From NCBI GenBank assembly GCA_035276365.1, contig DATELS010000330.1:1-53310 (forward strand): a DNA stretch of 53,310 nt. The letters are read 5' to 3'. Every line of letters begins with the position of its first letter. Position 1 is the stretch's first letter. Below, piece by piece: positions 1 through 28,020 of the stretch. Position numbers and translations under genes: made by a program. The notes beneath the pieces were generated by a model, which was not told the origin of the DNA, searched no databases, and was given only the letters and a program-made list of their open reading frames with translations. This DNA is from Thermoanaerobaculia bacterium (lineage in GTDB: Bacteria > Acidobacteriota > Thermoanaerobaculia > Gp7-AA8).

Positions 1-726
1 CACGCGGACCCGAGGATGCGTCGTGACGACGCGATTCAGAATCGCCTCGATGTTCTGCGTCGCCGACGTCGTCAGATCGGCAAACTCGAACCGATCAGGG
101 AGCTGCCCTCCGACGAGCAGTCGGATGATCCGTTCGGCTGCACCGCGTTGCAGCTCGAGTTGCTCCACGCGTTCCTCCGCCCGCAGGCGTTCCACCTGGA
201 TGCGCAGCCGATCAACTTCGCGCGTTTCACCGAGCTCCGCGCGGCGGTTCACGAGTTGCTCGAGCTGTCGCGCCACTTCGAGATCTTCCCGGGCCGCAGG
301 GAGGGAACGGTCCAGGGCGAGCAGCTCCACGTACGCGGATCGTAGCGTCGCGCGAAAGCCGAGCAGCACCAGGTCACGCGCGCTCTCCTCCGCCGCCACC
401 TGCGCCTCGAACGCCTCGCGGCGAGCACCGCGGCGGCCAAAGAGGTCGATCGGCTGCGTTACACGAAAAGCGGACTGCGTGCCGCTCTCGCCATCGCTTC
501 TGGCGGATGCCGCTTCGACCTCCACTTCGGTGTTGGGAAAGGCGCGGCTCTGCAGAAGCTCGCCGCGTGCCTGCGCGATCGCCGATTGCGCGGCGCGCAG
601 CCCCGGGTCGGCCGTCTGCGCCATCGTGACGAGCTGCTCGAACGTGAGGCGCTGAGCGGGCGCCGGTTCCTGTGCCGGCGCCGTGAGTGTCGCCGCAAGG
701 GCGACGCACAAAATGATGATTCTCAA
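1..726 (-). CDS. TolC/CzcC-family outer-membrane efflux protein, N-terminal 242 codons; the rest lies beyond the window start
   Basis: Frame is open from TTG at 726 (GGAGG 5 nt upstream) to base 1. It is absent from the ORF track because it has no stop. Translation begins (M)RIIILCVALAATLTAPAQE (signal peptide), then LTFEQLVTMAQTADPGLRAAQSAIAQARGELLQSRAFPNTEVEV. This parallels the N-terminus of the CzcC-like ORF at 21977. Confidence 0.7.
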   Translation of the reverse strand, partial: MRIIILCVALAATLTAPAQEPAPAQRLTFEQLVTMAQTADPGLRAAQSAIAQARGELLQSRAFPNTEVEVEAASARSDGESGTQSAFRVTQPIDLFGRRGARREAFEAQVAAEESARDLVLLGFRATLRSAYVELLALDRSLPAAREDLEVARQLEQLVNRRAELGETREVDRLRIQVERLRAEERVEQLELQRGAAERIIRLLVGGQLPDRFEFADLTTSATQNIEAILNRVVTTHPRVRV

Positions 727-769
727 ATGGACCTCCGAAAACGCGGTGAGCGGAGCGGCGAACGCAGCG

Positions 770-1084
770 TCAGCCGCGTTCGTCGGGCGGGATATCGACG
801 GCAGTGACCGCACTGAGCGGATTTCCGGCGGACGCCGTGGGCAGGACGGTAGCCTGCATAAGAGGCGTGTGGGGCGCTGTCGATTCGATCAACGCAGTGC
901 CCGAACAGATACAGGCGTGGCAGTCGAGCGAACCTGCATCATCGGAGCAGACATCGTTCGCCGTCATCGTCGATCCGGTTGCGCGAACTGCGACAACGAT
1001 GTCATCACAGCACCAGCTGGCGTCGATCGCGAGTAGCGCGATCAACACGAGCACTGCGCTCCGAAACATCGCTTTCGACCTCAT
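770..1084 (-). CDS. Small membrane-anchored Cys-rich protein (104 aa), distant relative of the CFCCCSH proteins at 18695 and 21541
   Basis: The internal ATG at 1084 overlaps the lspA stop (ATGA). Sequence is MRSKAMFRSAVLVLIALLAIDASWCCDD...LDCHACICSG...DIPPDERG, i.e. one TM helix followed by Cys clusters. It sits directly upstream of an outer-membrane factor gene, like its relatives. Confidence 0.5.
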   Translation of the reverse strand: MRSKAMFRSAVLVLIALLAIDASWCCDDIVVAVRATGSTMTANDVCSDDAGSLDCHACICSGTALIESTAPHTPLMQATVLPTASAGNPLSAVTAVDIPPDERG

Positions 1085-1575
1085 GTCCGCGCCTCGCTGG
1101 TCGCAGTGCGTCTGCTCGCGAGAAGGAGCGTGCCGATTCCGATACAGATCGCGACGTCGGCGAGATTGAACGCCGGCCAGTGATGCGCACCATTGGCCGT
1201 CCGCACGTAGAAGTCGAGAAAGTCCACCACCGGTCCGAGCGTCACCCGGTTCACGATGTTGCCGAGCGCTCCGCCGAGGACGAGATGCAATCCGACCTGC
1301 ATCCATCGGTCCGTAAGAGGAGTTCGCAGTGCGGTCAAGAACACGACGGCTGCAATGATCGCTGATGCGCCCGTGAGAAGCCATGGAAGGGCTCGCCCGA
1401 GATCAGCGCCGAGCCCGAATACGGCACCGGGGTTCCGCACATGCACGAGGTTGAACCAGCCGTCCACGACGGTGCGAACACTGCCGACGGGCAGCCATTC
1501 TCGGATGACCGCCTTCGTCGCCAGGCCGGCCGCCGCGACACCGAGCGCAATGAGAAGCAGCGTCAGGCGCGTCAT
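1081..1575 (-). CDS. lspA: Lipoprotein signal peptidase (signal peptidase II)
   Basis: MTRLTLLLIALGVAAAG...FNLVHVRNPGAVFGLG...LGGALGNIVNRV..VVDFLDF....WPAFNLADVAICIG contains the conserved LspA motifs. The start at 1575 overlaps the lgt stop by 4 nt. Confidence 0.9.
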   Translation of the reverse strand: MTRLTLLLIALGVAAAGLATKAVIREWLPVGSVRTVVDGWFNLVHVRNPGAVFGLGADLGRALPWLLTGASAIIAAVVFLTALRTPLTDRWMQVGLHLVLGGALGNIVNRVTLGPVVDFLDFYVRTANGAHHWPAFNLADVAICIGIGTLLLASRRTATSEART

Positions 1576-2375
1576 GTCGCTTCTCCTTGGATAGGAGGCG
1601 AGACTCGTCGCACCTGCAACCACGTGCCGATAGCGATCAAGATGACACTGATCAGTTGTGCGATGGTGAACGGCCCGAGGAAGCGATCATCCTTGACGCG
1701 TACGAACTCGACGAGAAATCGCTCCACACCGAGCAGGATCAGGAACATACCGAACTGAGATCCGCGCGCGGGCGCACGTCGCTGACGCCACATCAGGATG
1801 GCGAAGATCGCGAGACCCGCAGCGACTTCGTAAAGCTGCGTTGGATGAACGCGAAGCAGCGTTTCCGGTGCCAATGAAGGATCGACATGCGCCCCCGCCG
1901 CCCGCAGTGCTTCGGCGGTCGTCGGTGGACTTCCTTTCGGGAAGGCGACGCCGACGATGCTCGACGTCGGGCGGCCGTAGTCATCGCCCACGAAGAAGCA
2001 CGCCAGCCTTCCGACGCCATAGCCGATGGCCAGCGCAGGTGCGGCCGCATCCGCCACGGTAAGGTAGGGCAGCCTCCGCCGCCTCACCACGATCGTGCAG
2101 GCGATCCAGCCGCCGATCAGACCTCCGTACCAGACCAGCCCCGCGCGCGAGAACAGCGCTGAGAGATCGCGAAACAGGATCGCGTAGTAGATCTTCGCTC
2201 CGACGATCCCGCCGATCGCGGCCCATACCGTCAGCGTCGAGCCGAGCTCCGGATCGATTTCGGATCGGCGGAGACTCTTCGACAGCACCACCGACGCGAC
2301 CAGGAACGCGAGGAACATGAACAGACCGAAGGTCGTGATCTCGAAGTCGCCGATGCGGATGAGCGTGGGATACAT
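1572..2375 (-). CDS. lgt: Prolipoprotein diacylglyceryl transferase
   Basis: 267 aa, multi-TM. Contains MYPTLIRIGDFEITTFGLFMFLAF, LVWYGGLIGG, GRLACFFVGDDYGRPT and HPTQLYE, which are typical Lgt blocks. Confidence 0.9.
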   Translation of the reverse strand: MYPTLIRIGDFEITTFGLFMFLAFLVASVVLSKSLRRSEIDPELGSTLTVWAAIGGIVGAKIYYAILFRDLSALFSRAGLVWYGGLIGGWIACTIVVRRRRLPYLTVADAAAPALAIGYGVGRLACFFVGDDYGRPTSSIVGVAFPKGSPPTTAEALRAAGAHVDPSLAPETLLRVHPTQLYEVAAGLAIFAILMWRQRRAPARGSQFGMFLILLGVERFLVEFVRVKDDRFLGPFTIAQLISVILIAIGTWLQVRRVSPPIQGEAT

Positions 2376-2376
2376 G

Positions 2377-3651
2377 TCAGTGCCTTACCGATCGGCGACG
2401 CGTGGCTAAGCGCCGTAGTAATGCGGCCCTGTCGTGGGCGTCGATGGTTCCGTCTGCGTTCACGTCAGCGCCCCAGCTCGCGGCAACGTTGCCTCGTTGC
2501 GCATCGATCGTCCGCTGCACGGCGCCGTCGGTCAGCTCTCGATCGAGCGCCTCGAGGTCTGCCCGATCAACGGTGCCGTCGCCGTTCGCATCTCCTGCTT
2601 GCGGAAGGGTGACCTTGTAGATCGTGGTGGGCGTCGCGACGTAGATGCTTCCGTCGCGAGACTGCACGACATCGATCAGCGGGTCTTCGACCGGGTTCGC
2701 CGTGTGCTGCGGGACGGTCCGGCGTGCGCCGAACGATGAAACGCCTTCCGTATCGATCAGCGGAATCGGGTCCGGCATCGGCACCGCGTATGGATCGGGA
2801 ATGTAATAGAGCGTCTTCGTCACATACGCAGCGAGGAGCATTCCTCCGCGCGCGTAGCCGCCGAGGCTCGAGACTGAGATTGTGCCGGTCGGAGCCACAG
2901 TCGGTGCGAAGACGTAAGCGGGTGCGAGCATTCCATCGCGTGACGGCTTCGTCCCCTCGCCATACGGCCAGCCGCCGTTGTCGCCGAAGGAGACGATGTT
3001 GATCTCGTCCTGCCCACTCGAGCCGTTGTCGGGCACGATCAGTTTTCCAGTTGTCGCATCGACGACCAGGTCAAATGGATTACGGAAGCCGAGCGCGTAC
3101 ATGGTCGAAGTCCCGTCGCGCTGAACGCGGTGAATTTTCCCCGCGGGCCAGTCGGGCCGTTGCGCGTAGACGAAGGGAAGATCCCAGTCGCCGATCGGGA
3201 CATAGACGGAGTCGTCGGGCCCGACTACAGGATTCCCGCCGTGATGCTCCGGCAGGCAGCTCGACCAGTGCATGCAGTTGAACCGCGCCAACTCGCGCGT
3301 CGCGGCGCTGTTCGAGTCGATCTCCGCGAGCACATCCGCGCTGATCGTCGGCGTCACGTAATGCGCGACGATGCTGTCGTCACTTCGGAAAGCGATGCCG
3401 AGCAACGCTGCGTTCCCTTCGTTGGCCGTCTCGACTCGAGTCAGAAGGACGCTGTCCGTGCCTTCGATGCGGTAGATCCCGCCGTCCGTCGTCGAGTACC
3501 AGAGCCGGTTGCGCGAATCGATGGCGAGTGACGTCACGAACCCTGCTGTCGCCGCGACTCGCGTGAGCCTCATCCCTGGAACCGTGTCCGCACGCAACGC
3601 CGTGACGGCGAACAGCGTGAGGAGCACTGCGAAGGACGGCGCTCGGTTCAT
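2377..3651 (-). CDS. Secreted PQQ-dependent sugar (sorbosone/glucose) dehydrogenase-like beta-propeller with two C-terminal dockerin/EF-hand-like repeats
   Basis: Start taken at MNRAPSFAVLLTLFAVTALRA (signal peptide); its ATG overlaps the upstream stop. Contains HHGGNPVVGPDDSVYVPIGD and GFRNPFDLVVD...DEINIVSFGDNGGWP. C-terminal repeats are GDANGDGTVDRADLEAL and DVNADGTIDAHDRAALL. Confidence 0.7.
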   Translation of the reverse strand: MNRAPSFAVLLTLFAVTALRADTVPGMRLTRVAATAGFVTSLAIDSRNRLWYSTTDGGIYRIEGTDSVLLTRVETANEGNAALLGIAFRSDDSIVAHYVTPTISADVLAEIDSNSAATRELARFNCMHWSSCLPEHHGGNPVVGPDDSVYVPIGDWDLPFVYAQRPDWPAGKIHRVQRDGTSTMYALGFRNPFDLVVDATTGKLIVPDNGSSGQDEINIVSFGDNGGWPYGEGTKPSRDGMLAPAYVFAPTVAPTGTISVSSLGGYARGGMLLAAYVTKTLYYIPDPYAVPMPDPIPLIDTEGVSSFGARRTVPQHTANPVEDPLIDVVQSRDGSIYVATPTTIYKVTLPQAGDANGDGTVDRADLEALDRELTDGAVQRTIDAQRGNVAASWGADVNADGTIDAHDRAALLRRLATRRRSVRH

Positions 3652-4298
3652 GTCGGTTTGCGAGCCTTCATCAGTCCGAGCGTTCCGCCGATCGTCTGGA
3701 ACGTCAGCGTCTCGATTACCTCCACAAAACCCGCTGCGGCCACCATGCCCGGAATCCGTCCCTCGGCGTTGTCGCGCGTCGTCGGACCATCGAGCCATCG
3801 CACCGCACCGAACACGGTGCGCGCAAAGATCCCGGCCGGCTTCGCCCAATCGGCGACGTGCAGCTCCCCACCTGGCCGGAGCACGCGCAACATCTCGGCG
3901 AGGGTGCGCTCCTTGTCCGCGGTCGTGAGGTGATGCAGCACAAGACTCGTCAGGATCCGGTCGAAGGACGCGTCCGGATACGGCAGCGCGGTCGCGAACC
4001 CCTCATCGAACTGCACGCTCACGTGACCGGCTTTCGCACGGGCGATCGCAAGGATCTTCGGATCTCCGTCAATCCCGATCACCTCCGCGGTCGGCACGGC
4101 CTGCTTCGTCATCAGCGTGAGCGTCCCCGTTCCGCAGCCGACGTCGAGAACGCGATGTCGGGTCTGGATCTGCGCCTGCTTGATGAGCGCGCTCTTGAAC
4201 GTCGTCTCGCGTAGGAACCAGCGGATGAGCGGGTCGTAGAAGCGCGTGAGCGCGTCGTAGCCGAGGGCGGGGATGTAGCCGTGCTTCACCGTCATCAC
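3648..4298 (-). CDS. Class I SAM-dependent methyltransferase
   Basis: Motif I VLDVGCGTGTLT, then VIGIDGDP and LRPGGELHV. GTG at 4298 or ATG at 4295 overlaps the upstream stop. Confidence 0.85.
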   Translation of the reverse strand: MMTVKHGYIPALGYDALTRFYDPLIRWFLRETTFKSALIKQAQIQTRHRVLDVGCGTGTLTLMTKQAVPTAEVIGIDGDPKILAIARAKAGHVSVQFDEGFATALPYPDASFDRILTSLVLHHLTTADKERTLAEMLRVLRPGGELHVADWAKPAGIFARTVFGAVRWLDGPTTRDNAEGRIPGMVAAAGFVEVIETLTFQTIGGTLGLMKARKPT

Positions 4299-5677
4299 CG
4301 TTGCTCCGTTACCTTCAGCGGAATGACCTGGCGGAACTTTCCGCCCGTCGATTGTTCCGGCGGCTCGGATGCGCGTTCGATGCGCACGTGGGAAAGATCG
4401 TGCTCCGCGAGAAGCCGCGTCAGCGCGTCGGAGAGCGATCGCCAGATGCGGTCGGAGTCGCCGTCCGAAGTGAGCCGCAACCGCACGCGCAAAGCGGCCC
4501 GGCCGGTCTGCACGATCTGCGAAAGCTCTATGTCATCGACACGCTCCGTGACCGCGGCGAAAGCCAGCGGAGGAATGCTGACCTGCTGTCCATTCGCGCG
4601 CTCGAACGTCAGCACGTCGGCGGCGCGGCCCTGCACGCGAATCGCAGGCAGCGGATTGCCGCACGGACAGGGATCGGGGCGCTGCAGAACGCTGTCGCCC
4701 AGGTCGTAGCGAAGGATCGGCTGGACGCGGTTGGCGAGGTTGCTGATCAGCACCGTGTACGACTGCTCACCGGCCGGCACTGGCTGATATTCGGCATTGA
4801 CCGGCTCGACGACGACCCAGTCCGCATTGATGTGCAGCCATCGCTCCTCGCATCCGTAGCTGAGAAAGGTGCATTCCGTCGAGGCGTAGCTGTTGCCGAC
4901 CCTCGCGTCGAACGCCTTGGCGATCCGCGCGTATTCGTCAATCGGCAATCCCTCGGCTGACAGCGCGAGAAGAACCGGATGAATCGCCAGTCGCCCTGCT
5001 TCCTGCTCGCTGGCCAGCAACGCGGCCATGCTCGCGTAGGGCGCCATCACAGCCGGTTGGAAGCGATTGAGCTGCTCGACGAGCACTGGGAGCGGTGTCT
5101 GCGCCGGGAAGACGCCCACCCGTTTTCTGCCGCGCGGGCTCTTGCGCATGCGCGCCGCCGCGACCGCGGAGGCGAAGTGCCCGCCGCCCGCCATGATCAT
5201 CGCCATCCGTCCGCCGTGCGCGAAAATCCGCAGCACGTCACCGACGCCGAGCCACGACGTAATCATGCGAAAGGCGATCGCATTCGTCACGGCCATCGTT
5301 CGGTCGTCCAGGACGAACATGCCGCGCGCGCCGGTCGTGCCGGACGTCGTGGCCACGGTGTATTTGCCGAGGAAGCGCTCCGCGATTCGATCCGGATTTT
5401 CCGCCAGCGCGCGCACCTTCTCGAGCGTCACTTCCGGATCGGTGACCCAGTCGTCGAACCGCGCCATCAATCGCTTTTTGTCCGTTACCGGAAGCAGCGC
5501 GGCGTCATCGATTTCCCTCGGCAGATCGCGATAGAGCTCGCGGTAGTAGGGCGAATGGGCGCGCGCGAACGCCGCCATCTCCTCGAAGCGCGATCTCCGC
5601 CGCTGCGCGATCGCTGCCGGACCTTGCTTCATCGCACGCCGGCCGTCGCGAATCAGAGAAAGGAGGCTCTCGCTCAT
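4295..5677 (-). CDS. Adenylate-forming enzyme, phenylacetate-CoA ligase (PaaK)/F390-synthetase-like
   Basis: Start at MSESLLSL (ATG 5677 overlaps the upstream stop). AMP-binding loop is TTSGTTGARGMF. Size is 461 aa, with SYASTEC and RVQGRAADV blocks. The upstream 184 codons of ORF 4295..6229 are Arg/Gly-rich off-frame sequence. Confidence 0.7.
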   Translation of the reverse strand: MSESLLSLIRDGRRAMKQGPAAIAQRRRSRFEEMAAFARAHSPYYRELYRDLPREIDDAALLPVTDKKRLMARFDDWVTDPEVTLEKVRALAENPDRIAERFLGKYTVATTSGTTGARGMFVLDDRTMAVTNAIAFRMITSWLGVGDVLRIFAHGGRMAMIMAGGGHFASAVAAARMRKSPRGRKRVGVFPAQTPLPVLVEQLNRFQPAVMAPYASMAALLASEQEAGRLAIHPVLLALSAEGLPIDEYARIAKAFDARVGNSYASTECTFLSYGCEERWLHINADWVVVEPVNAEYQPVPAGEQSYTVLISNLANRVQPILRYDLGDSVLQRPDPCPCGNPLPAIRVQGRAADVLTFERANGQQVSIPPLAFAAVTERVDDIELSQIVQTGRAALRVRLRLTSDGDSDRIWRSLSDALTRLLAEHDLSHVRIERASEPPEQSTGGKFRQVIPLKVTEQR

Positions 5678-6279
5678 CCGCGTGCCTCGGTCCACGTGTG
5701 CCAGCCTGTCCAGAGCGAGAATGCCGCGATGACGGCTGCCGCGGCCGGATCGGCCCACCACCAGCCGAGGGCTGCGTTCAACGCCAGCCCGGAGAGGACA
5801 TTCAACGAAAGATAGTTCGACAGCCGCGTTTCCGCGGAGTCGGCGATCAGAACCTTGCTGCCGAGGCGCTCGCCGGTCGTCCGCTTCATCCGCGCAACGG
5901 GGATCATTACCGCCAGCGCGATCACGTTCATCGCGATGCCGACGATTGATGGCTCCGGACGTTCCTGCTGCAGCAGCCTGCTGATCGACTCGAACCCTAC
6001 ATAGAGGCCGAGGAGGCAGAACGTGCAGGCGATGAGACGCAGCGCCAGCCGGTGGCGCCTTAGCGAAGCCTGCCGCCGAAGCTGCCAGGCCACGATCATC
6101 GACGCGAACACTTCGATCGCCGAGTCCAGACCGAACCCGATCAGGACGATCGACTGCGCGATGACACCCGCTGTCACCGCCACCACCCCCTCCACGATGT
6201 CCCACGCAATCGTGAAGTACGCCAGCCACAGGCCGCGCCGCAGCAGAGCGTCGTGCGGCATCGCGGCGGCGGCGGTCAT
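5674..6279 (-). CDS. Cation-efflux (CDF-like) membrane protein, transmembrane domain only
   Basis: Start at MTAAAAMPHD (ATG 6279 overlaps the ATPase stop). About 6 TM helices. Contains FGLDSAIEVFAS and LIADSAETRLS, Asp/Glu pairs as in CDF TM2/TM5. There is no cytoplasmic C-terminal domain. Confidence 0.6.
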   Translation of the reverse strand: MTAAAAMPHDALLRRGLWLAYFTIAWDIVEGVVAVTAGVIAQSIVLIGFGLDSAIEVFASMIVAWQLRRQASLRRHRLALRLIACTFCLLGLYVGFESISRLLQQERPEPSIVGIAMNVIALAVMIPVARMKRTTGERLGSKVLIADSAETRLSNYLSLNVLSGLALNAALGWWWADPAAAAVIAAFSLWTGWHTWTEARG

Positions 6280-8387
6280 GACCTCAGCATCCGCAGTCCG
6301 CTGGCGATGACGATGAACTCGCTGAACTCGTGGCCGAGGACAGCCATCGGCAGCGTGAACTTGCCGAGCACGGCACCGGTGACGAAGACGAGAATGACGG
6401 CGATCGACAGCGCGAGGTTCTGCCGCACCACCGATTGATTTCGCTTGGCCAGCTTGATGGCGTAGACGAGCTTCTCGAGATCGTCGGCCATCAGCGCAAC
6501 GTCCGCAGTCTCCAGCGCCACGTCCGTCCCTGCGGCTCCCATGGCGATGCCGACAGTCGCTTCGGCGAGCGCGGGCGCGTCGTTCACGCCGTCGCCCACC
6601 ATGGCCACGTGTCCGTGCTCTTTCGAGAGCTCGCGCACCTTCACCGCTTTGTCTTCCGGCTTGAGGTTCGCGAAGATCCGGTCGATCCCGACCTCGGAGG
6701 CGATCGCTCGTGCCGTCGTTTCGTTGTCGCCGGTGAGCATGGCCACCTGCGTCACGCCGACTGCGTGCAGAGCGGCGATGGCCGCGCGTGCGTTCGGCCG
6801 GATGTTGTCGCGGATGGCGATCGCCGCCCATGCTTCGGTGGGGCTGCCGACGATCACCACGGTGTTCCCGCCGGCGCGCAGTCGCTCGATCTCGCCGCGC
6901 AATGCGTCGAGGCCGACGCGCAACTCGCCTTCGAAGAGCTCCGGACTTCCGATGTACACGTCGTCGTTGCCAATCCGGCCCACTGCGCCCGCTCCGATGA
7001 GCGAGCGGAACTCGTCGAGCGGCTTCGGCTCAACACCCTTCGCCGTCGCATGCGCCACGATCGCGCGCGCCAGCGGATGCTGGCTGCGACTCTCCACTGC
7101 AGCCGCTCGCGCCAGAATCTCTTCAACGGAAATCGCCGTGGTGGCAGTGACGACCTGCGTCACCTCGGGTTCGCCCCGCGTGATGGTGCCGGTCTTGTCC
7201 AGCGCGACGACGCGCACCTTCGCCAGCTCCTCCAGATACACGCCGCCTTTCAGCAGCACGCCTTTGCGCGCTGCCGTGCCGAGGGATGCCACGAGAGTGA
7301 TCGGGATGGCGATCACCAGCGCACATGGCGACGCCGCGACGATGAATACCGTCGCGCGCGTGATCCATGTCCGCCAGTCCGCATCGAACAGCAGCGGCGG
7401 CACGATCGCGACGAGCACGCCGATCGCCAGCACCGCGGGGCTGTAGCGGCGACCGAAGCGCTCGATGAAACGCTCGCTCGTCCCTTTCCGCTCCTGCGCC
7501 TCCTCGACCATCTCGATGATCCGCGCGATGGTGTTGTTGGCGAACGTCTTCGTGGCCCGCACCTCGAGCGAGCCTTCTTCGTTGATGCTGCCCGCGAAGA
7601 CCGGATCTCCTGTCGTCTTCTCGACGGGAACGCTTTCGCCCGTGACCGGTGCCTGATTGACGCTCGAGCGCCCGCCGATCACCTCGCCGTCCGTCGCCAG
7701 CGCCTCGCCCGGACGGACGATGAAGATGTCGCCGACCTGCAGCTCCTCCACCGGGATCTCGACTTCGCGTCCGTCGCGTCGCACCGTGGCGCGCTTCGGC
7801 GTGAGGTCCATCAGCTTCCGGATCGCCGAGCGCGTCTTCTCTTCCGTATACCCCTCGGCCGCTTCCGAGATGGAGTAGAGGAAGGCCAGCATCGCCCCCT
7901 CCATTGCCTCGCCCATGATGATGGCCACCGTCGCGCCGACCGTCATCAGCATCTCGATGCTGATGCGCCGCTCGAAGAGCAGGTCTTCGACTGCCTCGCG
8001 CGCGAAGTAGTACGCGCCAATGACGGCGGAGACGATGTAGATCGCCAGCGTGACCGTTTCGCTCGCGCCGGCGCGGCCGATCAGCCATCCGGCGAGCAGG
8101 AGAACTCCCGATGCGACCGAGGTGATGACCTTCGGGTTCTTCCACGGCTTCGGCGTCTCAGCCATGCCGGGTCCCTCATGCACGGGGAAGCCGAGGTCGC
8201 GCAGCGACGTCTTGATCGCATCCGCGGAGACGCGCTTTTCGTCGAACCGCAGTGCGACCTTCGCCGCCTTCGGGTAGACCTGCAGGTCGGAGATGCCTTC
8301 GACGCGCTCGAGACCGCGCCGGATTGCGGCGGCGTCGCTGTCGCAGTCGAGATGGGCTACGCGGAGCTGAAGTTCCTGATTCGGCAT
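6276..8387 (-). CDS. Heavy-metal P1B-type ATPase with SPC transmembrane motif
   Basis: Start at MPNQELQL. HMA-like N-domain (LRVAHLDCDSDAAAIRRGLERVEGI). Also TGESVPV, SPCALVIAIP, DKTGTIT, GDGVNDAPAL, and HEFSEFIVIASGLRML in the last TM. Confidence 0.9.
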   Translation of the reverse strand: MPNQELQLRVAHLDCDSDAAAIRRGLERVEGISDLQVYPKAAKVALRFDEKRVSADAIKTSLRDLGFPVHEGPGMAETPKPWKNPKVITSVASGVLLLAGWLIGRAGASETVTLAIYIVSAVIGAYYFAREAVEDLLFERRISIEMLMTVGATVAIIMGEAMEGAMLAFLYSISEAAEGYTEEKTRSAIRKLMDLTPKRATVRRDGREVEIPVEELQVGDIFIVRPGEALATDGEVIGGRSSVNQAPVTGESVPVEKTTGDPVFAGSINEEGSLEVRATKTFANNTIARIIEMVEEAQERKGTSERFIERFGRRYSPAVLAIGVLVAIVPPLLFDADWRTWITRATVFIVAASPCALVIAIPITLVASLGTAARKGVLLKGGVYLEELAKVRVVALDKTGTITRGEPEVTQVVTATTAISVEEILARAAAVESRSQHPLARAIVAHATAKGVEPKPLDEFRSLIGAGAVGRIGNDDVYIGSPELFEGELRVGLDALRGEIERLRAGGNTVVIVGSPTEAWAAIAIRDNIRPNARAAIAALHAVGVTQVAMLTGDNETTARAIASEVGIDRIFANLKPEDKAVKVRELSKEHGHVAMVGDGVNDAPALAEATVGIAMGAAGTDVALETADVALMADDLEKLVYAIKLAKRNQSVVRQNLALSIAVILVFVTGAVLGKFTLPMAVLGHEFSEFIVIASGLRMLRS

Positions 8388-8413
8388 CGGAGTGAATCCT
8401 CGGGTGTAATGCT

Positions 8414-8812
8414 TCAGACGAGCTCGCGCACGTGGTCGAATCCTTCGTCGATCAGGCGTCCGATATGCTCGTCGTCGAGCGAGTAGTAAGCGATTTTTCC
8501 CTGCTTGCGGTACCGCACGAGATCCATCTGCCGCAGCGCGCGGAGCGAGTGCGAGACCGCCGACTGCGACGCACCGACGATGGTGGCCAGATCGCAGACG
8601 CACAGCTCTTCCTTCGAGAGAGCGAAAACGATCTTCACGCGCGTGGCGTCGCCGAGGACGCGGAACGTCTCGGCGAGGAGCTGCACGGCGTCGGCGGAGT
8701 GCATCTTGCGGCGGACGCTCGTGACCTTCCGGGCATCGACGACGTTCACTTCACAGGCGTCGTCGTTCGTGTCGACCTTGCGATTCTTCTTCAGTTCGGT
8801 TCGTGCGCTCAT
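8414..8812 (-). CDS. ArsR/SmtB-family metal-sensing repressor (CadC-like Cys pattern)
   Basis: LGDATRVKIVFALSKEELCVCDLATIVGASQSAVSHSLRALRQMDLV is a winged HTH with the ELCVCDL alpha3 site. An N-terminal Cys is present (DDACEV). Confidence 0.9.
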   Translation of the reverse strand: MSARTELKKNRKVDTNDDACEVNVVDARKVTSVRRKMHSADAVQLLAETFRVLGDATRVKIVFALSKEELCVCDLATIVGASQSAVSHSLRALRQMDLVRYRKQGKIAYYSLDDEHIGRLIDEGFDHVRELV

Positions 8813-8832
8813 ATGAACAGTCGTTCATATGA
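8809..8832. promoter_or_regulatory. Perfect 10-4-10 inverted repeat TCATATGAAC-AGTC-GTTCATATGA; candidate ArsR/SmtB operator
   Basis: Read directly from the sequence. The left arm covers the repressor start codon (8810-8812). The TGAAC..GTTCA core resembles known SmtB/CzrA/CadC-type operators. Confidence 0.55.
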
Positions 8833-8901
8833 TATGCCCGGTCCGAGGTACGTCAAGTGTCTTGAACGATCGCGCTCCGAGCTCTCTCAGAACGCCGTGG
8901 A

Positions 8902-9684
8902 TTATCGCCCGCGTCCACGGCGTTCACGCCGATCTCGATCGGCACGGTCATCTTCGTCGTGCCGTTCCTCGTCGTCCCCTTCTTCGTCTGAGTCTTCCTC
9001 CTCACCTGCCTCGGCGAGGATGGAGGACAAATAGCGCGCTGCTGCGATGCGCTCCTCGTCCGAGATCGGGTCCTTTCCGGGGATCGTGCGAGAGAACCGC
9101 TGCATCTTCCGGGTGATGCGACTCCATTCCCGCGCGTCCTCTCGCTCTGAGGCGATGGTGGATGCCCCGTGGCATTGGTTGCATTTGCTGGAAAGCGCTT
9201 CCCGGCCGCGCGTCTGTTCCGGAGTGAGCTTTGCGAGCGGTTGCACGACGCGCCATGCTGGAACGACGCCGAGCGCCGCGGTGATGATCGTCGTGACCGC
9301 GAGCGTGCCGCCGATCCACGGGAGTCGGTGGCCGAACGAGTGGAAGCGTCGGATCACGGCGATCTTGACCGTCAGCAGCAGGCCGATGAACACGCCAAGA
9401 ATCCCGTGCACGATGCTCGTCGGAGTCGCAACGCGGAACTCCCAGGTCCGAGGCAGCATCTCGAACAGCAGCGCAGCGTAGAGGAGGATGAAGACATAGC
9501 CTAGCCCGCGGTGGAGAAGCACGCCTGCTCGCGGTGCCGTCGAGATCCCATGCGGACTCCGCCCCGATGGATCGGGCGCCATCGGGAACCGCCAGAGCCA
9601 TGCCATCAGGGTGGCGTTGATTACCGCGATGGTCGCCATCGCCAGACCGAACCAGATCGTCGTCTGCATGGTCATCGTGACCAT
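8902..9684 (-). CDS. Membrane protein (about 4 TM) with a C-terminal c-type haem motif and a charged tail
   Basis: TM segments are followed by SSKCNQCHG (CxxCH). The tail is EEEDSDEEGDDEERHDEDDRADRDRRERRGRGR. Confidence 0.55.
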   Translation of the reverse strand: MVTMTMQTTIWFGLAMATIAVINATLMAWLWRFPMAPDPSGRSPHGISTAPRAGVLLHRGLGYVFILLYAALLFEMLPRTWEFRVATPTSIVHGILGVFIGLLLTVKIAVIRRFHSFGHRLPWIGGTLAVTTIITAALGVVPAWRVVQPLAKLTPEQTRGREALSSKCNQCHGASTIASEREDAREWSRITRKMQRFSRTIPGKDPISDEERIAAARYLSSILAEAGEEEDSDEEGDDEERHDEDDRADRDRRERRGRGR

Positions 9685-9754
9685 GCGCTGCGGATTTCAA
9701 GCCCGGGAGTACGGCGGCCGTTTCGCGCTGCGCATGGCGGCTCAAGGTTGACTT

Positions 9755-9809
9755 TCAATTGAGACTGGACAAACATCGGTCTCCTCAGTTGAGATAGAGT
9801 CTCAATTAA
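9755..9809. promoter_or_regulatory. Three copies of a TCA(A/G)TTGAGA(C/T) half-site (two direct, one inverted) upstream of the TonB-dependent receptor
   Basis: TCAATTGAGAC at 9755-9765, TCAGTTGAGAT at 9785-9795, and the inverted GTCTCAATTAA at 9799-9809. All lie in the 149-bp divergent intergenic region. Confidence 0.3.
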
Positions 9810-9833
9810 ATCTCGCGATTTTCGGAGCTTTTC

Positions 9834-12155
9834 ATGCGCCATCTCTTCGCCTTTTTCTTCTACGCCGCGCTCGTGGTCGGCGCGTCGCCTGCGACTGCTG
9901 CGGATGGATCTTCGATCCGCGGCATGGTCGTCGATCCATCGGGACGCGCCATCATCGGCGCGCGCGTCGTTCTCCATTCGCCTGCGGCATCCGATCGCGT
10001 CACGATGACGGATCGCTCGGGCAGGTTCACCTTCGATGAGGTTCCGGCAGAGGCCTCGCTTCGTGTTGCCGCAGAGCGATTCAGAGACACGGCGGTTGCT
10101 CTCACAGAGGAGAGATCCGACCTTCGCATCGTCCTCGAGGCCGCAGCCGTGGCCGAGGAGATCACCGTCATCGCCCCGCCGCCACTTCCCGTGCGCAGCT
10201 CGACCGCCACGAAGACCGACACGCCCCTCCGCGACGTGCCGCAGTCCGTCACCGTCATCACACGCGACGTTATCGCCCAGCAGAGCATGCAAGGCGTCGC
10301 AGACGTCGTCCGCTACGTTCCCGGCATCGGCATCGCTCAGGGAGAAGGGAATCGCGACACGCCGATCTTCCGCGGCAACAGCTCCACCTCGGACTTCTTC
10401 GTCGACGGCGTTCGCGATGACGTGCAGTACTTCCGCGACCTCTATAACGTCGAGCGCGTGGAGGCGCTGAAAGGCCCGAACGCCATGATCTTCGGCCGCG
10501 GCGGGGTCGGCGGGGTGCTGAACCGCGTCACGCGGCAGGCGGAATGGACTCCCACGCGCGAGCTCGCTCTGCAGGGCGGCTCGTTCGGCGACCGTCGCGT
10601 CAGCGGCGATTTCGGTCAGCTCCTCACCGAAAGCGTTTCCGCGCGCGTCACCGGCGTCTATCAGCAGTCCGAGTCGTACCGCGATGGCGCGCGCCTGGAT
10701 CGCTATGGGATCAATCCAACCGTGGCAGTCGCGATCGGACCGAAGACGATGCTTCGCGCCGGCTTCGAATACTTCCACGACGACCGCACCGCCGATCGCG
10801 GCATCCCTTCGTTCGCAGGCCGGCCGGTGAGTACCGACGCATCGACGTTCTTCGGCAACGCGGACCTGAGCAACTCCCGCGCGAACGTCAAGGTCTGGTC
10901 GTCCACCGTCGATCACCGCTTCAGCGAGACGGTTTCGCTGCGCAGCCGCCTCTCGTACGGCGACTACGACAAGTTCTATCAGAACGTCTTCCCCGGTGCG
11001 GCCGACGCGTCTGGAACGAACGTCAGCATCTCCGCGTACAACCAGGCGACGCAGCGTCAGAACCTCTTCAGTCAGACCGATCTCGTGGTCACGCGACGCA
11101 CCGGCCGTTTCGGTCACACCATCCTGGCGGGCATGGAGCTGGGCCGGCAGATGACGGACAACTTCCGCGAGACCGGCTACTTCACCACGCTCGGCGCGGG
11201 CGTCACGACCGTCTCGGTTCCGATCTCGAGCCCGAAGACATCGCTGCCGCTGGAGTTCCGCCAGAGCGCATCGGATGCGGACAACCACGGCATCGCCCAG
11301 ATCGCCGCGCTGTACGTGCAGGACCAGATCACCCTCACGCCGCGGCTCCAGGCCCTCGCCGGAATCCGCTACGACCGCTTCCGCGTCGATTTCCGCAACA
11401 ACCGCAGCGGCGCGGCGTTCGAGAGCAGCGACGGCCTCGTTTCGCCGCGCCTCGGCCTCGTCTACAAGCCCATCGAGCCCGTTTCGCTGTACGCGAGCTA
11501 CAGCCTCTCCTATCTCCCGCGCGCCGGCGAACAACTGTCGTCGCTCACGCTCTCGAATCAGTCCCTCGATCCCGAGGAGTTCCGGAACTACGAGCTCGGC
11601 GCGAAGTGGGACGTGGCGAAGCGACTGGAGCTCGCGGCGTCGGTATACCGGCTCGACCGCGGCAACGTCGCCGTCCCCGACCCGATCAATCCCGCCGTCT
11701 CCACGCTCGTCGATGGACAGCGCAGCGAAGGCTTCGAGCTGAGCGCCGCCGGAAATCTCACCGGCGCCTGGAGCATCGTCGGCGCGTACGCGTTTCAGGA
11801 TGGCGAGATCCTGCAGTCGTTGTCCTCCACCGCCCGTGCCGGCGCGAAGCTCGCGCAGTTGCCGCGGCATTCCGCGTCGCTCTGGAACAAGCTCGATCTC
11901 TCATCCGCCTGGGGTGTCGGCCTCGGCGTCATCTACCGCGACGCCCTCTTCACCTCGACCGACAACAGCGTGACGCTCCCCGCATTCACTCGCGTCGATG
12001 CTGCGCTCTACTACACCTTCAGCCAGCGTCTGCGCGCGCAGGTGAACGTGGAGAACCTCTTCGACACCGAGTACTACGCCTACGCCCACAGCAACACGAA
12101 CATCACGCCCGGCTCGCCACGCGCGGTACGCGTCAGCTGGACGACGCGCTTCTGA
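9834..12155 (+). CDS. TonB-dependent outer-membrane receptor with N-terminal carboxypeptidase-regulatory-like domain
   Basis: Signal peptide, then SIRGMVVDPSGRAIIGARVVL. Plug motifs are DTPLRDVPQSVTVITRD, IFRGN and VERVEALKGPNAMIFGRGGVGGVLN. C-terminal beta-strand ends in ...VRVSWTTRF. Confidence 0.9.
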   Translation: MRHLFAFFFYAALVVGASPATAADGSSIRGMVVDPSGRAIIGARVVLHSPAASDRVTMTDRSGRFTFDEVPAEASLRVAAERFRDTAVALTEERSDLRIVLEAAAVAEEITVIAPPPLPVRSSTATKTDTPLRDVPQSVTVITRDVIAQQSMQGVADVVRYVPGIGIAQGEGNRDTPIFRGNSSTSDFFVDGVRDDVQYFRDLYNVERVEALKGPNAMIFGRGGVGGVLNRVTRQAEWTPTRELALQGGSFGDRRVSGDFGQLLTESVSARVTGVYQQSESYRDGARLDRYGINPTVAVAIGPKTMLRAGFEYFHDDRTADRGIPSFAGRPVSTDASTFFGNADLSNSRANVKVWSSTVDHRFSETVSLRSRLSYGDYDKFYQNVFPGAADASGTNVSISAYNQATQRQNLFSQTDLVVTRRTGRFGHTILAGMELGRQMTDNFRETGYFTTLGAGVTTVSVPISSPKTSLPLEFRQSASDADNHGIAQIAALYVQDQITLTPRLQALAGIRYDRFRVDFRNNRSGAAFESSDGLVSPRLGLVYKPIEPVSLYASYSLSYLPRAGEQLSSLTLSNQSLDPEEFRNYELGAKWDVAKRLELAASVYRLDRGNVAVPDPINPAVSTLVDGQRSEGFELSAAGNLTGAWSIVGAYAFQDGEILQSLSSTARAGAKLAQLPRHSASLWNKLDLSSAWGVGLGVIYRDALFTSTDNSVTLPAFTRVDAALYYTFSQRLRAQVNVENLFDTEYYAYAHSNTNITPGSPRAVRVSWTTRF

Positions 12156-21540: not shown

Positions 21541-21903
21541 ATGACGCGAGCAGTTGCAAGTCGAGGTCCCACACACTGGCGCACGATCGCCCGCGCGGCG
21601 GCTGTGCTTCTCCTGATGCTCGCTGCCGCGGACTTGGCGTTTCCGCAGATCTGCCGGGAGAATGCATCTCGACTCCCGGCCGCCCCAGTGGCCGCGTCGC
21701 TTCAGGCGCAGCAGGCCGAAGGCAGCGGGAGCGATGAGACGCAGCGCGAGGATTGCTTCTGCTGCTGCTCGCACATCGTATCCGCGGAGCCGCAGACGCT
21801 TCAGACCAGTCTCCCGGGTACGCAGGGAGCTCTTGCCGCTCGCAATCTCCGCGAGCCGGCAGTGCCCGTGCTCTCGTTGTTCCGCCCTCCTCGGCTCGCG
21901 TAG
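21541..21903 (+). CDS. Small membrane-anchored Cys-rich protein with a REDCFCCCSH motif; first gene of the czc-like operon
   Basis: WRTIARAAAVLLLMLAAADLAFPQICREN...REDCFCCCSHIVSA...LFRPPRLA. It lies 73 nt upstream of czcC. Confidence 0.6.
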   Translation: MTRAVASRGPTHWRTIARAAAVLLLMLAAADLAFPQICRENASRLPAAPVAASLQAQQAEGSGSDETQREDCFCCCSHIVSAEPQTLQTSLPGTQGALAARNLREPAVPVLSLFRPPRLA

Positions 21904-21976
21904 TTCCTTCCTGAGCCGCTTCGTCCCTCGTTCGGTTTTCTGCTGAACGATCCGACTCCAATTCCTGAGGTTTTCG

Positions 21977-23314
21977 ATGATTGATCGATTTTCCATCGCG
22001 CGAGCGTGCTTGCTCTCGTTCGCGATGAGTGCCGTGGCCGCTGTGCCGGTCGCGGCTCAAGAAACCACGTCTACTACGACACAAGCGACGGCCCCCGCAA
22101 CGGCTGGCGGCGTCGAGGATCTCGTGCGCCGCGCGCTCACCGCGAACCGTGAGCTTGCCGCCGCGAGAATCGAGATCGCCCGCGCCCGCGCCCGTCGTCA
22201 GCAGGCCACCCTGCTTCCGAATCCGGTGCTCGAGTTCGAGCAAACCGGCGGTGCGCTCGGCATCTCCAAAGGAGAACGCGAACGCCGCGCCGAGATCTCC
22301 GTCCCGATCGAGTACGGCGGCAAGCGCGGCCGGCGCATCGACGTGGCTGAAGCCGAGTTGCGCGCCACCGAGGCATTCGTCGCCGATCGTGAACGGCGTC
22401 TCGCCGCAGAAGTACGGCGGCTCTATGCCGAAGCGGTCGCCGCGAACCGCGAGCTGTCGTTCACGAACGAGCTCACGCAGATCGACGCCGAGATCGGCAA
22501 CGTCCTGCAGGTGCGCGTGCGCGAAGGGGATGCGCCGCCGCTGGAGGAGAGCCTCCTGCGTGTCGAGATCGACCGCCTTCGTTCCCGCCGGGCCATGCTC
22601 GAGGGACGCCGCCGAGCGGCCGAACTGCAACTGGCGACGGTGATCGGGCTTCCCGCGAACGAGCGCATCGCCCTGGCCGACGGCTACAGCGAGGGCGTCA
22701 CCGTGCAGACGGTCGAGGAAGCCACGCGCCTGGCCTTACAGAACCGTCCCGATCTTCGTGCGGCCGAGCTGAACATCGCCGCCGCGGAAGCGGGCTTACG
22801 GCTCGCGAACGCCCAGGCACTGCCGGACATCAGCGTCTTCGCGGGCTACGCGAATGGCCGCAGCGGCTTCGATGACACGCCCGTCGGGCCGTTGGTCGAT
22901 CAGGACAAGCTGATCAACGCCGGTGTCGGCATCTCGATCCCGATCTTCAACCGCAATCAGGGAGCGAAGGCCGAAGCTGCCGCCGCGATCGAGCAGGCCA
23001 GACGCCTGCGCGAGCTGACGGAGCTGCAGATCCGCGCCGAGGTCGAGAGCGCGGTGGCCCGCTATCGCGCCGCCGACGCCGCCGTCGAGGTGTTCCGTCA
23101 GGGTGTCCTGGAGCGTTCGGAACAGAACGTCCGCACGATGCGCGCCGCCTACGAGGCCGGTGCGTTCACGATCAGCGAGTTTCTCGCCGAACGCCGCCGC
23201 CTCGTCGATGCTCAGCGCGAGCTGACCGAGGCGCTCACCGAGCGTGCGGTTGCTCTCATCGACCTGCAGGCTGCCGTCGCCGAGCCTATCGAAATCAATG
23301 AGGAGCCGAAGTAA
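21977..23314 (+). CDS. czcC: Outer-membrane efflux factor, TolC/CzcC family
   Basis: Signal peptide and two OEP repeats. Contains LVRRALTANRELAAARIEIARARARRQQATLLPNP and NRNQGAKAEAAAAIEQA. Confidence 0.85.
   Translation: MIDRFSIARACLLSFAMSAVAAVPVAAQETTSTTTQATAPATAGGVEDLVRRALTANRELAAARIEIARARARRQQATLLPNPVLEFEQTGGALGISKGERERRAEISVPIEYGGKRGRRIDVAEAELRATEAFVADRERRLAAEVRRLYAEAVAANRELSFTNELTQIDAEIGNVLQVRVREGDAPPLEESLLRVEIDRLRSRRAMLEGRRRAAELQLATVIGLPANERIALADGYSEGVTVQTVEEATRLALQNRPDLRAAELNIAAAEAGLRLANAQALPDISVFAGYANGRSGFDDTPVGPLVDQDKLINAGVGISIPIFNRNQGAKAEAAAAIEQARRLRELTELQIRAEVESAVARYRAADAAVEVFRQGVLERSEQNVRTMRAAYEAGAFTISEFLAERRRLVDAQRELTEALTERAVALIDLQAAVAEPIEINEEPK

Positions 23315-24566: not shown

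Positions 24567-24567
<1 letters not shown>
23314..24567 (+). CDS. czcB: RND efflux periplasmic adaptor (membrane-fusion protein), lipoprotein-type
   Basis: Lipobox LAALAC, His/Glu-rich linker, then HlyD-like blocks (VSGRVERVTAVAGDRVGAGAVLAILSSPE and LRAPISGTITERMVNAGAGV). The start overlaps the czcC stop. Confidence 0.85.
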
Positions 24568-27659
<3,092 letters not shown>

Positions 27660-27669
27660 GGAGATAGTC

Positions 27670-28020
27670 ATGAAGATGATTGCAGCGGTGATCCAACCAT
27701 TCATGCTCACAAGGCTCACTCGGGCGCTTGAAGAGATTGAGGATTTTCCCGGCATGACCGTGATCGATGTACAGGGGTTCGGCCGCGAGAAGGCCCATCA
27801 CGATCCGGGTTCGCGCCATTCGCGCATCGAGGACGTCGTCGATTTCGTGAAGAAGGTGCGCGTCGAGATCGTCGCGCACAACTTCATGGTCGATCAGATC
27901 GTGAAGACGATCGCGGAGACCGCGCACACCGGGAATCGAGGCGATGGAAAGATCTTCGTGCTCTCCGTGGAGCATGCGGTGAGGATCAAGACAGGGGAAG
28001 CAGGAGACGCGGCAATCTGA
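27670..28020 (+). CDS. P-II (GlnB/GlnK)-like signal-transduction-fold protein
   Basis: MKMIAAVIQPFMLTRLTRALEEIEDFPGMTVIDVQGFGREK...KVRVEIVAHNFMVDQIVKTIAETAHTGNRGDGKIFVLSVEHAVRIKTGE shows the P-II fold pattern. It lies 10 nt after czcA. Confidence 0.8.
   Translation: MKMIAAVIQPFMLTRLTRALEEIEDFPGMTVIDVQGFGREKAHHDPGSRHSRIEDVVDFVKKVRVEIVAHNFMVDQIVKTIAETAHTGNRGDGKIFVLSVEHAVRIKTGEAGDAAI

Follow-up and report, generated by a model that had tools for sequence, protein, structure and literature searches.

Metal-resistance islands are usually read as pumps and sensors. In the pbrTRABCD operon of Cupriavidus metallidurans CH34, a P-type ATPase occurs with PbrC, a homologue of signal peptidase II, and with the Cys-rich protein PbrD. 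The locus described here is a minus-strand gene chain at the start of contig DATELS010000330.1 (C330) of a Thermoanaerobaculia bacterium (GenBank assembly GCA_035276365.1), a complete contig of 53,310 nucleotides that was analyzed as a whole and is referred to as the window. The chain leads from an ArsR/SmtB repressor gene through genes for a P1B-type heavy-metal ATPase and a short cation diffusion facilitator (CDF) to a czcCBA efflux system. In this chain and in related loci of many phyla, a small non-transport gene set travels with one clade of Zn/Cd/Co-type ATPases; its recurring members are an adenylating ligase related to PaaK, a methyltransferase, and extra copies of prolipoprotein diacylglyceryl transferase (Lgt) and signal peptidase II (LspA).

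The pbr lead-resistance operon, to which PMC3668242 and PMC3431237 refer, shares with the island the P-type ATPase, the LspA homologue, and, in general description, a small Cys-rich protein (PbrD). However, the regulator of the island is of the ArsR type and not the MerR-type PbrR, no phosphatase (PbrB) domain occurs in the chain, PbrT is absent, and the Cys-rich open reading frame (ORF) is much smaller than PbrD and leader-like. Other parts of the arrangement resemble cad and znt clusters. The gene for CdfX, a Zn-exporting CDF protein without a cytoplasmic domain, lies close to cadA within a C. metallidurans genomic island (PMC11580412). A cluster encoding MerR, ZntA, a short CDF, PCuAC, Sco, CcdA, and signal peptidase II, with overlapping stop and start codons, is widespread in alphaproteobacteria (PMC13707694), and two Mesorhizobium strains have a Zn-induced lspA paralog near cadA that is likened to PbrC (PMC3668242). 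Like the island, these clusters place a Zn/Cd-type P1B ATPase under a metal sensor together with a short CDF and an extra LspA, and they are compact, horizontally mobile, and joined by overlapping stop and start codons. The island differs in having ArsR/SmtB instead of MerR and an SPC/HEFSE instead of a CPC ATPase, and in lacking PCuAC, Sco, and CcdA. To the cad/znt layout it adds the PaaK-like ligase, the methyltransferase, a GSDH/dockerin propeller, Lgt, and a directly attached czcCBA.

An earlier note on this DNA had regarded the chain as a union of functions that one operon would not normally combine. The transport and sensor genes are of known kinds, LspA and the short CDF are published and partly tested recurrent neighbors of Zn/Cd/Pb ATPases, and the ligase, methyltransferase, and Lgt also recur beside P1B ATPases across phyla, so this view cannot be kept. 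The link between metal ATPases and the ligase and methyltransferase appears to be new, as no relevant paper emerged when the literature was searched for this enzyme in metal islands or a metal context.

Gene order, junctions, and regulation of the chain

Family assignment through Pfam and NCBIfam profile searches of the window proteins agrees with the gene identities proposed in the earlier note (Table 1); the Cys-rich ORF itself has no Pfam or NCBIfam match at E <= 0.01, DUF2946 included. The junctions likewise lie where that note had placed them. On the minus strand, 4-nt ATGA overlaps occur at 6276-6279, 5674-5677, 3648-3651, 1572-1575, and 1081-1084, a 4-nt GTGA overlap at 4295-4298 joins the ligase and methyltransferase genes, a 1-nt gap at 2376 (TGA-C-ATG) precedes lgt, and a 43-nt spacer lies between the stop codon of the Cys-rich ORF (770-772) and czcC, which starts at 726 with a TTG that GGAGG precedes by six bases. 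Since an in-frame ATG lies 3 nt downstream of the GTGA, coupling at this junction is possible with either start. The ATPase gene begins with an ATG 26 nt past the arsR stop codon and is preceded by GAGGA. At most junctions, Shine-Dalgarno-like GGAG or GAGG strings lie within the 3′ end of the preceding gene.

Though the head-to-tail order of the nine-gene chain is real, the unit is longer than the earlier note had supposed. It continues on contig C385 with czcC′ (3-422), czcB (419-1639, joined by an ATGA overlap), and czcA (1643-4765, after a 3-nt gap), so that it comprises at least 12 genes, from arsR through czcA. C330 and C385 join within czcC, residues 1-242 of the outer-membrane factor lying on the former and residues 268-406 on the latter, with about 25 codons absent from the assembly. 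CzcB matches HlyD_D23 (4e-49), and CzcA is 95% identical to the product of an ACR_tran gene on a related metagenome contig (L009); the outer-membrane factor, adaptor, and pump of a heavy-metal efflux resistance-nodulation-division (HME-RND) CzcCBA system thus stand in a row across the two contigs. Beyond czcA, a 380-nt gap is followed by a 221-aa ORF and a NadE-like gene.

Stoichiometric co-expression, for which the continuous coupling had been taken to argue, does not follow from these junctions. Gene calls for the whole assembly (793 contigs, 5.2 Mb, 65.5% GC) came from a simple codon-usage model, which overlooked two small genes of the chain (those of the CDF and the Cys-rich protein) and set two starts wrongly, and the overlap rate of the genome is therefore an approximate base rate only. 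By these crude calls, exact 4-nt overlaps join 18.5% (possibly 24%) of the 2341 same-strand neighboring pairs. Compared with the genome rate, their occurrence at six of the nine chain junctions has a binomial p of 0.002-0.016, and runs of at least 10 closely spaced genes are rare, with two in the whole assembly. The pattern is enriched yet of a common kind in this genome. Since about one in five same-strand pairs has such an overlap, the overlaps argue for an operon and not for stoichiometry; they reflect operon compaction and allow translational coupling, without establishing a fixed ratio of products.

The arrangement is not unique to this genome, so that the lack of conservation by which the earlier note would have counted itself refuted did not turn up. 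Three metagenome contigs (L009, L010, and L011) keep the same gene order and the same overlaps, including the 1-nt gap before lgt. Their proteins are 45-90% identical to those of the window, only the Cys-rich ORF falling below 68%, and their ligases are 68-81% identical to the window ligase. The spacer before czcC measures 44-49 nt in the relatives, except that the gene call for L011 gives 145 nt. The chain continues into czcC-czcB-czcA, with more ATGA overlaps, in L009 and L010, and L011 ends inside czcC. Among the genomes of the bacterium's own relatives, the ligase was found in 0 of 40 (24 of the same genus and 16 wider relatives), and each same-genus genome has one copy of Lgt, only this genome having two. 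Given the missing ligase in these relatives and the extra Lgt and LspA, the chain is an accessory island.

ArsR/SmtB regulators carry metal-ligand motifs in α3 (CVC) and α5 (DxH-x10-H-x2-E), and their operators are perfect or imperfect 12-2-12-type palindromes overlapping the promoter. The product of the first gene scores 66.8 bits against PF01022 (HTH_5; cut-off 22) and 94.1 bits against NF033788 (cut-off 55). Its translation carries both the α3-type ELCVCDL, which we take to mark an α3(N) Cd/Pb/Zn site, and the α5-type DxH-x10-H-x2-E (DDEH-IGRLIDEGFD-H-VRE), which presumably marks an α5 Zn/Co/Ni site. The palindrome noticed earlier at 8809-8832 is exact (10-4-10) and is the single match in the window, where 0.04 would be expected by chance. 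The arsR start codon lies within it, and L010 and L011 also have the palindrome ahead of arsR. The sole sigma-70-like site in positions 1-9800 precedes arsR, with its -10 box overlapping the palindrome. By its motifs and putative palindromic operator, the protein is classed as an ArsR/SmtB regulator, and metal binding by it is predicted. Terminator-like matches are fewer than in shuffled sequence, with no excess, and an Rfam scan of 1-10000 returned no match. The sequence features support the genes from arsR to czcA behaving as one co-directional unit, and we infer that they are read as a single transcript.

Table 1. Features of the gene chain and of related loci (window coordinates unless a contig is named).
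Feature	Position	Strand	Basis or remarks
Promoter-like site	8829-8856	minus	TTGACG-16 nt-TATCAT; sigma-70 consensus match only, 10/12 positions
Putative ArsR/SmtB operator	8809-8832		Perfect 10-4-10 palindrome TCATATGAAC-N4-GTTCATATGA
ArsR/SmtB metalloregulator, 132 aa	8414-8812	minus	HTH_5 1.5e-18; NF033788 94 bits vs cut-off 55
P1B-type heavy-metal ATPase, 703 aa	6276-8387	minus	TIGR01525 607 bits
Short CDF transporter, 201 aa, membrane domain only, CdfX-like	5674-6279	minus	Cation_efflux, residues 32-196
PaaK-like/F390-synthetase-related adenylate-forming enzyme, 460 aa, predicted cytoplasmic	4295-5677	minus	TIGR02304 below cut-off
Class I S-adenosylmethionine (SAM)-dependent methyltransferase, 216 aa, UbiE/CpaM-like	3648-4298	minus	Below all equivalog cut-offs
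Secreted GSDH-family (pyrroloquinoline quinone (PQQ)-type sugar dehydrogenase) beta-propeller with C-terminal dockerin-type Ca-binding module, 424 aa	2377-3651	minus	GSDH 2e-19; Dockerin_1 4e-9
Second Lgt, island-borne, 267 aa	1572-2375	minus	Pfam
Second LspA, 164 aa	1081-1575	minus	Pfam/NCBIfam; catalytic dyad kept
Cys-rich exported ORF, 104 aa, candidate CzcI/CutF-like leader peptide	770-1084	minus	No Pfam/NCBIfam match
czcC, 5′ part (outer-membrane factor, OEP)	1-726	minus	TTG start behind GGAGG; truncated by contig end
LspA orthologs with GNIVNR	1081-1575; L009 5077-5577; L010 14110-14610; L011 12105-12608		
Second metal module	21541-33134	plus	Small Cys-rich ORF, second czcCBA, full-length CDF, second P1B ATPase
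NadE-like gene	C385 5146-7682; L010 20519-21386; L006 10559-12628		CN_hydrolase + NAD_synthase

The ligase and its partner ATPase clade

Relatives of the island ligase are encoded on at least 591 sequence stretches, found among 600 candidate stretches, and are 52-68% identical across bacterial phyla and archaea. They occur in Alpha- and Gammaproteobacteria, Acidobacteriota, Planctomycetota, Chloroflexota, Actinomycetota, Bacillota, Bacteroidota, Nitrospirota, Gemmatimonadota, Saccharibacteria, and methanogenic archaea. Within 10 kb of the best 80 ligase loci, each from a different species, a P1B ATPase is found at 39, LspA at 24, a related methyltransferase at 14, and ArsR at 13. When six metagenome and reference-genome contexts are also taken in and the neighboring ORFs are grouped by unsupervised clustering, the 86 loci have the ATPase in 44 cases, LspA in 26, the methyltransferase in 24, the short CDF in 21, ArsR in 20, and MerR in 13.

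The ligase gene often directly adjoins genes for [A/S]PC/HExSE ATPases, 64-68% identical to that of the window, in Acidobacteriota, Planctomycetota, Chloroflexota, and Alphaproteobacteria. Methanosarcina and Methanolobus have a 4-nt overlap between the ligase gene and the gene of a more remote ATPase (47% identical) that shares these motifs. The order is ArsR-ATPase-Lgt-ligase in a Nitrospiraceae metagenome-assembled genome (MAG) and ATPase-methyltransferase-Lgt-ligase in a Gemmatimonadaceae MAG. Plasmids carry further versions: ArsR-ATPase-LspA-CcdA-CadD-ligase on plasmid 3 of Arthrobacter FB24, all three plasmids of which have ligase matches, ArsR-ATPase-methyltransferase-ICMT-ligase-LspA-Zip on a Rubrobacter plasmid, and methyltransferase-ICMT-cyclase-ligase, divergent from ArsR-ATPase, on a Mycolicibacterium plasmid. 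By gene neighborhood, the closest partner of the ligase is the [A/S]PC/HExSE ATPase clade. In a reciprocal test on metagenomic loci with sufficient flank, a ligase lies near 5 of 18 ATPases of this clade and near 1 of 26 other P1B ATPases (Fisher p = 0.034), counts that make the ligase an enriched but optional companion.

Two further observations concern actinobacterial loci. On the Rubrobacter and Mycolicibacterium plasmids (L007 8393-9004; L095 6275-6901), a membrane methyltransferase of the ICMT/PEMT type is encoded between the soluble methyltransferase and the ligase. In actinomycete loci with no ATPase nearby, a same-strand TetR gene directly precedes the ligase gene (L045, L059, L064, L066, L067, L074, and L077; the same arrangement is seen in L079, L080, L082, L086, L087, and L089-L091).

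The ATPase of the chain, with E1-E2 ATPase and HAD domains, scores 607.5 bits against TIGR01525 (cut-off 346). Its N-terminal domain, similar to the heavy-metal-associated (HMA) domain, reads LDCDSDA instead of CxxC, and SPC and HEFSE occur in transmembrane segments (TM) 6 and 8, respectively. The CPC motif of P1B-2 ATPases (ZntA/CadA) is absent from TM6, where the sequence is AASPCALVIAIP and relatives have AAPC, and the score against the ZntA exception model is 479 bits against a cut-off of 1240. P1B-4 ATPases (CzcP/CoaT-type) combine SPC in TM6 with HEGxT in the final TM pair and mostly lack a metal-binding domain at the N-terminus. The window ATPase has the SPC, but combines it with HEFSE in TM8 and an HMA-like N-terminal domain, and most members of its clade have APC; canonical SPC/HEGST ATPases are present in these loci as a set of their own. 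The clade is marked by A[A/S]PC in TM6, HE[VIL]SE in TM8, and an N-terminal HMA-like (R)V(A)NLDCEHDAAAI instead of GMxCxxC, and its members, 55-69% identical to the window ATPase, come from many phyla (L011, L016, L017, L029, L033, L034, L047, L049, L052, and others). Judged by these motifs, the clade lacks the CPC signature of P1B-2 and does not appear to fit the SPC/HEGxT signature of P1B-4. The next gene of the chain, which overlaps the ATPase stop codon, encodes a CDF protein matching PF01545 and not PF16916 (ZT_dimer). Its domain layout and its Zn/Cd ATPase neighbor place it with the CdfX type.

The ligase scores 110.9 bits against TIGR02304 (cut-off 251.9), 29.5 against the haloarchaeal PaaK model (cut-off 700), and 17.3 against PF00501 (cut-off 29.9), so it is assigned only to the superfamily, outside the PaaK and F390-synthetase-related equivalogs. 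The signatures of the ANL superfamily, namely a TSGTTG P-loop, YxxTE, and the C-terminal catalytic Lys (Lys447 in the island enzyme), are invariant in 17 diverse homologues, and are the same in PaaK, NatL2, AjiA1, and the "F390 synthetase-related" ligases (PDB 6wuq, 6siw, 4r1l; TIGR02304). In these 17 homologues, which belong to different phyla, C276, C337, and C339 are also invariant and C269 nearly so; the invariant Cys residues could form a metal site. Against solved structures, only the central ~200 residues align (E 1e-17), with PaaK-like aryl-acid ligases (AjiA1, NatL2, and PaaK) as the best matches. The island ligase differs from these ligases in its score far below the cut-off, its own invariant Cys residues, and a metal-pump neighborhood with no paa or natural-product genes nearby. 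An AlphaFold2 model from the 17-sequence alignment (mean pLDDT 63.8, pTM 0.49) was too poor for a fold search or for judging if the invariant Cys residues lie together. The methyltransferase encoded on L010 (11386-12040) is 85% identical to that of the window by tblastn, yet the called ORF is only 84 aa long, and the gene is possibly frameshifted.

Envelope genes and the Cys-rich ORF

The propeller scores 70.4 bits against PF07995 (cut-off 25) and 37.1 bits against PF00404 (cut-off 22.9), which assigns it a GSDH and a dockerin domain; PQQ binding and catalysis are predicted only. This architecture is common in Acidobacteriota, with matches in Thermoanaerobaculia MAGs being 42-46% identical. 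Three more distant GSDH-dockerin homologues (L097 1326-8607; L098 685-5527; L099 1-9346) have metal-type neighbors: a CsoR-type repressor with a TonB-dependent receptor, or Cu/Zn superoxide dismutase, disulfide isomerase, and RND/Zip genes. Such neighborhoods are a weak hint of a metal-related periplasmic role.

The island Lgt scores 195.6 bits against PF01790 (cut-off 24.9) and 116.1 against TIGR00544, just under the cut-off of 118.9. It is 63% identical to the housekeeping Lgt on contig C442, with which it shares the YGGL and GRxxxFxxGDDYGRPT blocks. The island LspA scores 104.4 bits against TIGR00077 (cut-off 73.95) and is 51% identical to the other LspA of the genome. The catalytic Asp dyad of LspA is D124/D143 in Pseudomonas aeruginosa and D118/D136 in Staphylococcus aureus (PMC8048626, PMC6952399), and 14 highly conserved residues have been listed (PMC6952399). 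In an alignment with the 169-aa P. aeruginosa chain, VVD-F and FNLAD of the island LspA fall on D124 and D143, and the dyad is intact. A reading of the GNIVNR motif of the island enzyme as the mark of a dead peptidase was rejected, because the P. aeruginosa alignment and the list in PMC6952399 show the dyad to be intact and Asp109 to be the residue changed. One lipoprotein client is encoded in the operon itself, as CzcB has a canonical lipobox (ATVTAC-S).

The family of the Cys-rich ORF consists of 29 clusters, from metagenomes only. Its invariant features are LLA-x-DASWC after a hydrophobic N-terminus, DC[HY]xCICSG, and D[IV]PP[DN]xRx-stop at the C-terminus. CutF-like leaders have been defined by rules as ORFs of <150 aa with an N-terminal export signal, a Cys/His motif, a C-terminal proline motif, and a spacer of <100 nt, and CzcI, which lies upstream of czcCBA, is counted among them (PMC9973294). 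The island ORF fits these rules with its 104 aa, invariant CC and CxxCxC, PP-x-x-R two residues before the stop codon, and the 43-nt spacer, the export signal being a hydrophobic N-terminus judged by inspection only. Like the CutF/CruR/CzcI leaders (PMC9973294), it is thus a small ORF with a Cys motif and a C-terminal proline motif with a nearby Arg, and it occupies the position of CzcI before czcCBA. It differs in lacking DUF2946, in having CxxCxC and a CC pair in place of CxxxC, in its unsupported stem hiding the ribosome-binding site (RBS), and in being coupled by ATGA to the upstream lspA2. The fold of minimum free energy has the PPDERG codons base-paired with the stretch around GGAGG. The window contains another small Cys-rich ORF (21541-21903, with CFCCCSH), homology to which is not significant (E = 0.19), so that only the architecture is shared.

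Proposed function and alternative explanations

It is likely that the chain forms one resistance operon with 12 or more genes, repressed by ArsR/SmtB, inducible by metal, located on a horizontally acquired island, and composed of concatenated modules that are each found next to P1B ATPases in other places as well. The metals concerned are probably those of the Zn/Cd/Co/Pb group. In this operon, ArsR bound to the palindromic operator over its own promoter and start codon would control the ATPase and the CdfX-like CDF, and the [A/S]PC/HExSE-type ATPase together with the CDF lacking a cytoplasmic domain would export metal across the inner membrane. In the cytoplasm, the ligase and methyltransferase pair may make or modify a small carboxylate, a thiol compound, or an envelope lipid by which the cell better withstands the exported metal, a best guess drawn from the ligase fold, the methyltransferase partner, and the membrane-enzyme neighbors. 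The envelope module would consist of the secreted GSDH/dockerin propeller and the extra Lgt and LspA, which could sustain thiol-dependent lipoprotein maturation when thiophilic metal is present in the periplasm, the CzcB adaptor being one client. The Cys-rich ORF would probably act as a leader that senses periplasmic metal and gates czcC translation ahead of the CzcCBA trans-envelope pump. The operon thus suggests control at two levels, with a repressor for cytoplasmic metal and a leader peptide for periplasmic metal before the pump is translated.

More tentatively, the unnamed PaaK-like clade is proposed as a functional partner, across domains, of the distinct P1B pump clade, usually with a SAM-dependent methyltransferase and often with LspA or Lgt. 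It would make or modify a small molecule, or contribute to lipid or lipoprotein modification, as required for surviving the metal that leaves through the pump. This proposal is possible rather than probable; if it is true, the partnership would add a new biochemical layer to bacterial and archaeal metal resistance. Should the ligase and methyltransferase pair serve metal tolerance, this would point to new chemistry, for instance a ligand, a reaction of repair, or a modified envelope.

Several observations weigh against parts of this explanation. Among the three related contigs, L009 has the CDF gene within the chain, L010 has it upstream of arsR in inverted orientation, and L011 lacks it, a variation which suggests that the modules are loosely joined. 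The chain shows no compositional sign of horizontal transfer (65.1% GC against 65.5% for the genome). The sigma-70 consensus scan of 1-9800 found no promoter-like site within the chain, but non-consensus internal promoters would escape it. The ligase is optional, with ~28% of the ATPase clade having one, and more distant actinomycete members of the ligase family follow a TetR regulator gene on their own, without metal genes around them. In the envelope module, the equivalent of S. aureus Asp109 is Asn in LspA of all four chain orthologs (GNIVNR, not GNxxDR), against Asp in the housekeeping LspA and in 23 of the 23 other island LspAs examined, and the window LspA alone among the orthologs has Gly at the Asp21 equivalent. 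Peptidase activity of the island LspA is thus not assured, and no canonical lipobox occurs in CzcC, the propeller, or the Cys-rich ORF. The stem that would hide the czcC RBS is no better than in shuffled sequence (z = 0.59), with no supporting covariation in a four-sequence consensus. Because of this unsupported stem and the missing DUF2946 match, the identification of the Cys-rich ORF as a CzcI/CutF-type leader peptide for czcCBA is held at roughly even odds. It is still the more likely role when compared with that of cargo; of the earlier note's description of this gene as one more co-expressed function, the overlap with lspA2 stands, but a regulatory leader before czcC is favored.

The co-transcribed ligase, methyltransferase, propeller, lgt, and lspA could also be hitchhikers collected as the island was rearranged time and again, with no specific part in metal resistance, their overlaps reflecting only deletion pressure in a mobile element. 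Such passengers would account for the variable CDF, the seemingly disrupted methyltransferase of L010, the low share of the ATPase clade with a ligase, the TetR-linked ligases, and the transposases and integrases near several loci. However, the ligase, methyltransferase, LspA, Lgt, and short CDF re-assort in varied orders next to P1B ATPases, across at least eight phyla as well as archaea, which is hard to explain without selection for co-function and makes passengers unlikely. The identity retained by the ligase between bacterial phyla and archaea and the metal-induced lspA paralog of Mesorhizobium (PMC3668242) also speak against them. Somewhat less probable again is a dedicated maturation pathway, in which Lgt2, LspA2, the ligase, and the methyltransferase turn the Cys-rich protein, or a similar client, into a modified, lipid-anchored periplasmic metal binder in the manner of PbrC and PbrD. 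The ATGA overlap of lspA2 with the Cys-rich gene and the invariant LLA-x-DASWC(C)D right after the hydrophobic segment would suit such a client, though Trp at position -1 is no known lipobox residue, and the PP-x-x-R two residues before the stop codon, the 43-nt spacer, and the GGAGG fit a leader peptide better. The atypical LspA (D109N) co-occurs only with the Cys-rich ORF family, and LspA or Lgt directly adjoins the ligase in several phyla, with membrane methyltransferases of the ICMT/PEMT type in the actinobacterial versions. Yet the Cys-rich family, with its 29 clusters, is limited to close relatives while the link between ligase and LspA crosses phyla, and the ligase and methyltransferase have no signal peptide or membrane segment, whereas lipoprotein processing is extracytoplasmic.

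A division into two units, with arsR to lspA2 on one transcript and the Cys-rich ORF and czcCBA on a second that is controlled independently, for example by a two-component system or an unrecognized promoter inside lspA2, is very improbable. The absence of a promoter-like site from the scanned chain and the ATGA overlap of the Cys-rich ORF with lspA2 in all four contigs both argue for the single operon. On the other hand, the sole real spacer of the chain, with its strong GGAGG, precedes czcC, czc operons elsewhere usually have their own regulators, and the second czc operon of the window begins with its own small Cys-rich ORF.

That second operon belongs to the other metal module of the window, which is part of the same island. 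Its Cys-rich ORF (CFCCCSH ... RPPRLA-stop) ends 73 nt before the second czcCBA. The CDF of this module (29286-30176) has ZT_dimer (PF16916), unlike the short CDF of the chain, and its P1B ATPase (30672-33134) is 40% identical to the chain ATPase. The NadE-like gene, which encodes a protein resembling glutamine-dependent NAD synthetase with CN_hydrolase and NAD_synthase domains, was rejected as a core member of the chain, being present in only 6 of the 86 ligase loci. Both this genome and L010 have it after czcA, and in Microvirga a NadE-like gene stands directly after the PaaK-like gene.

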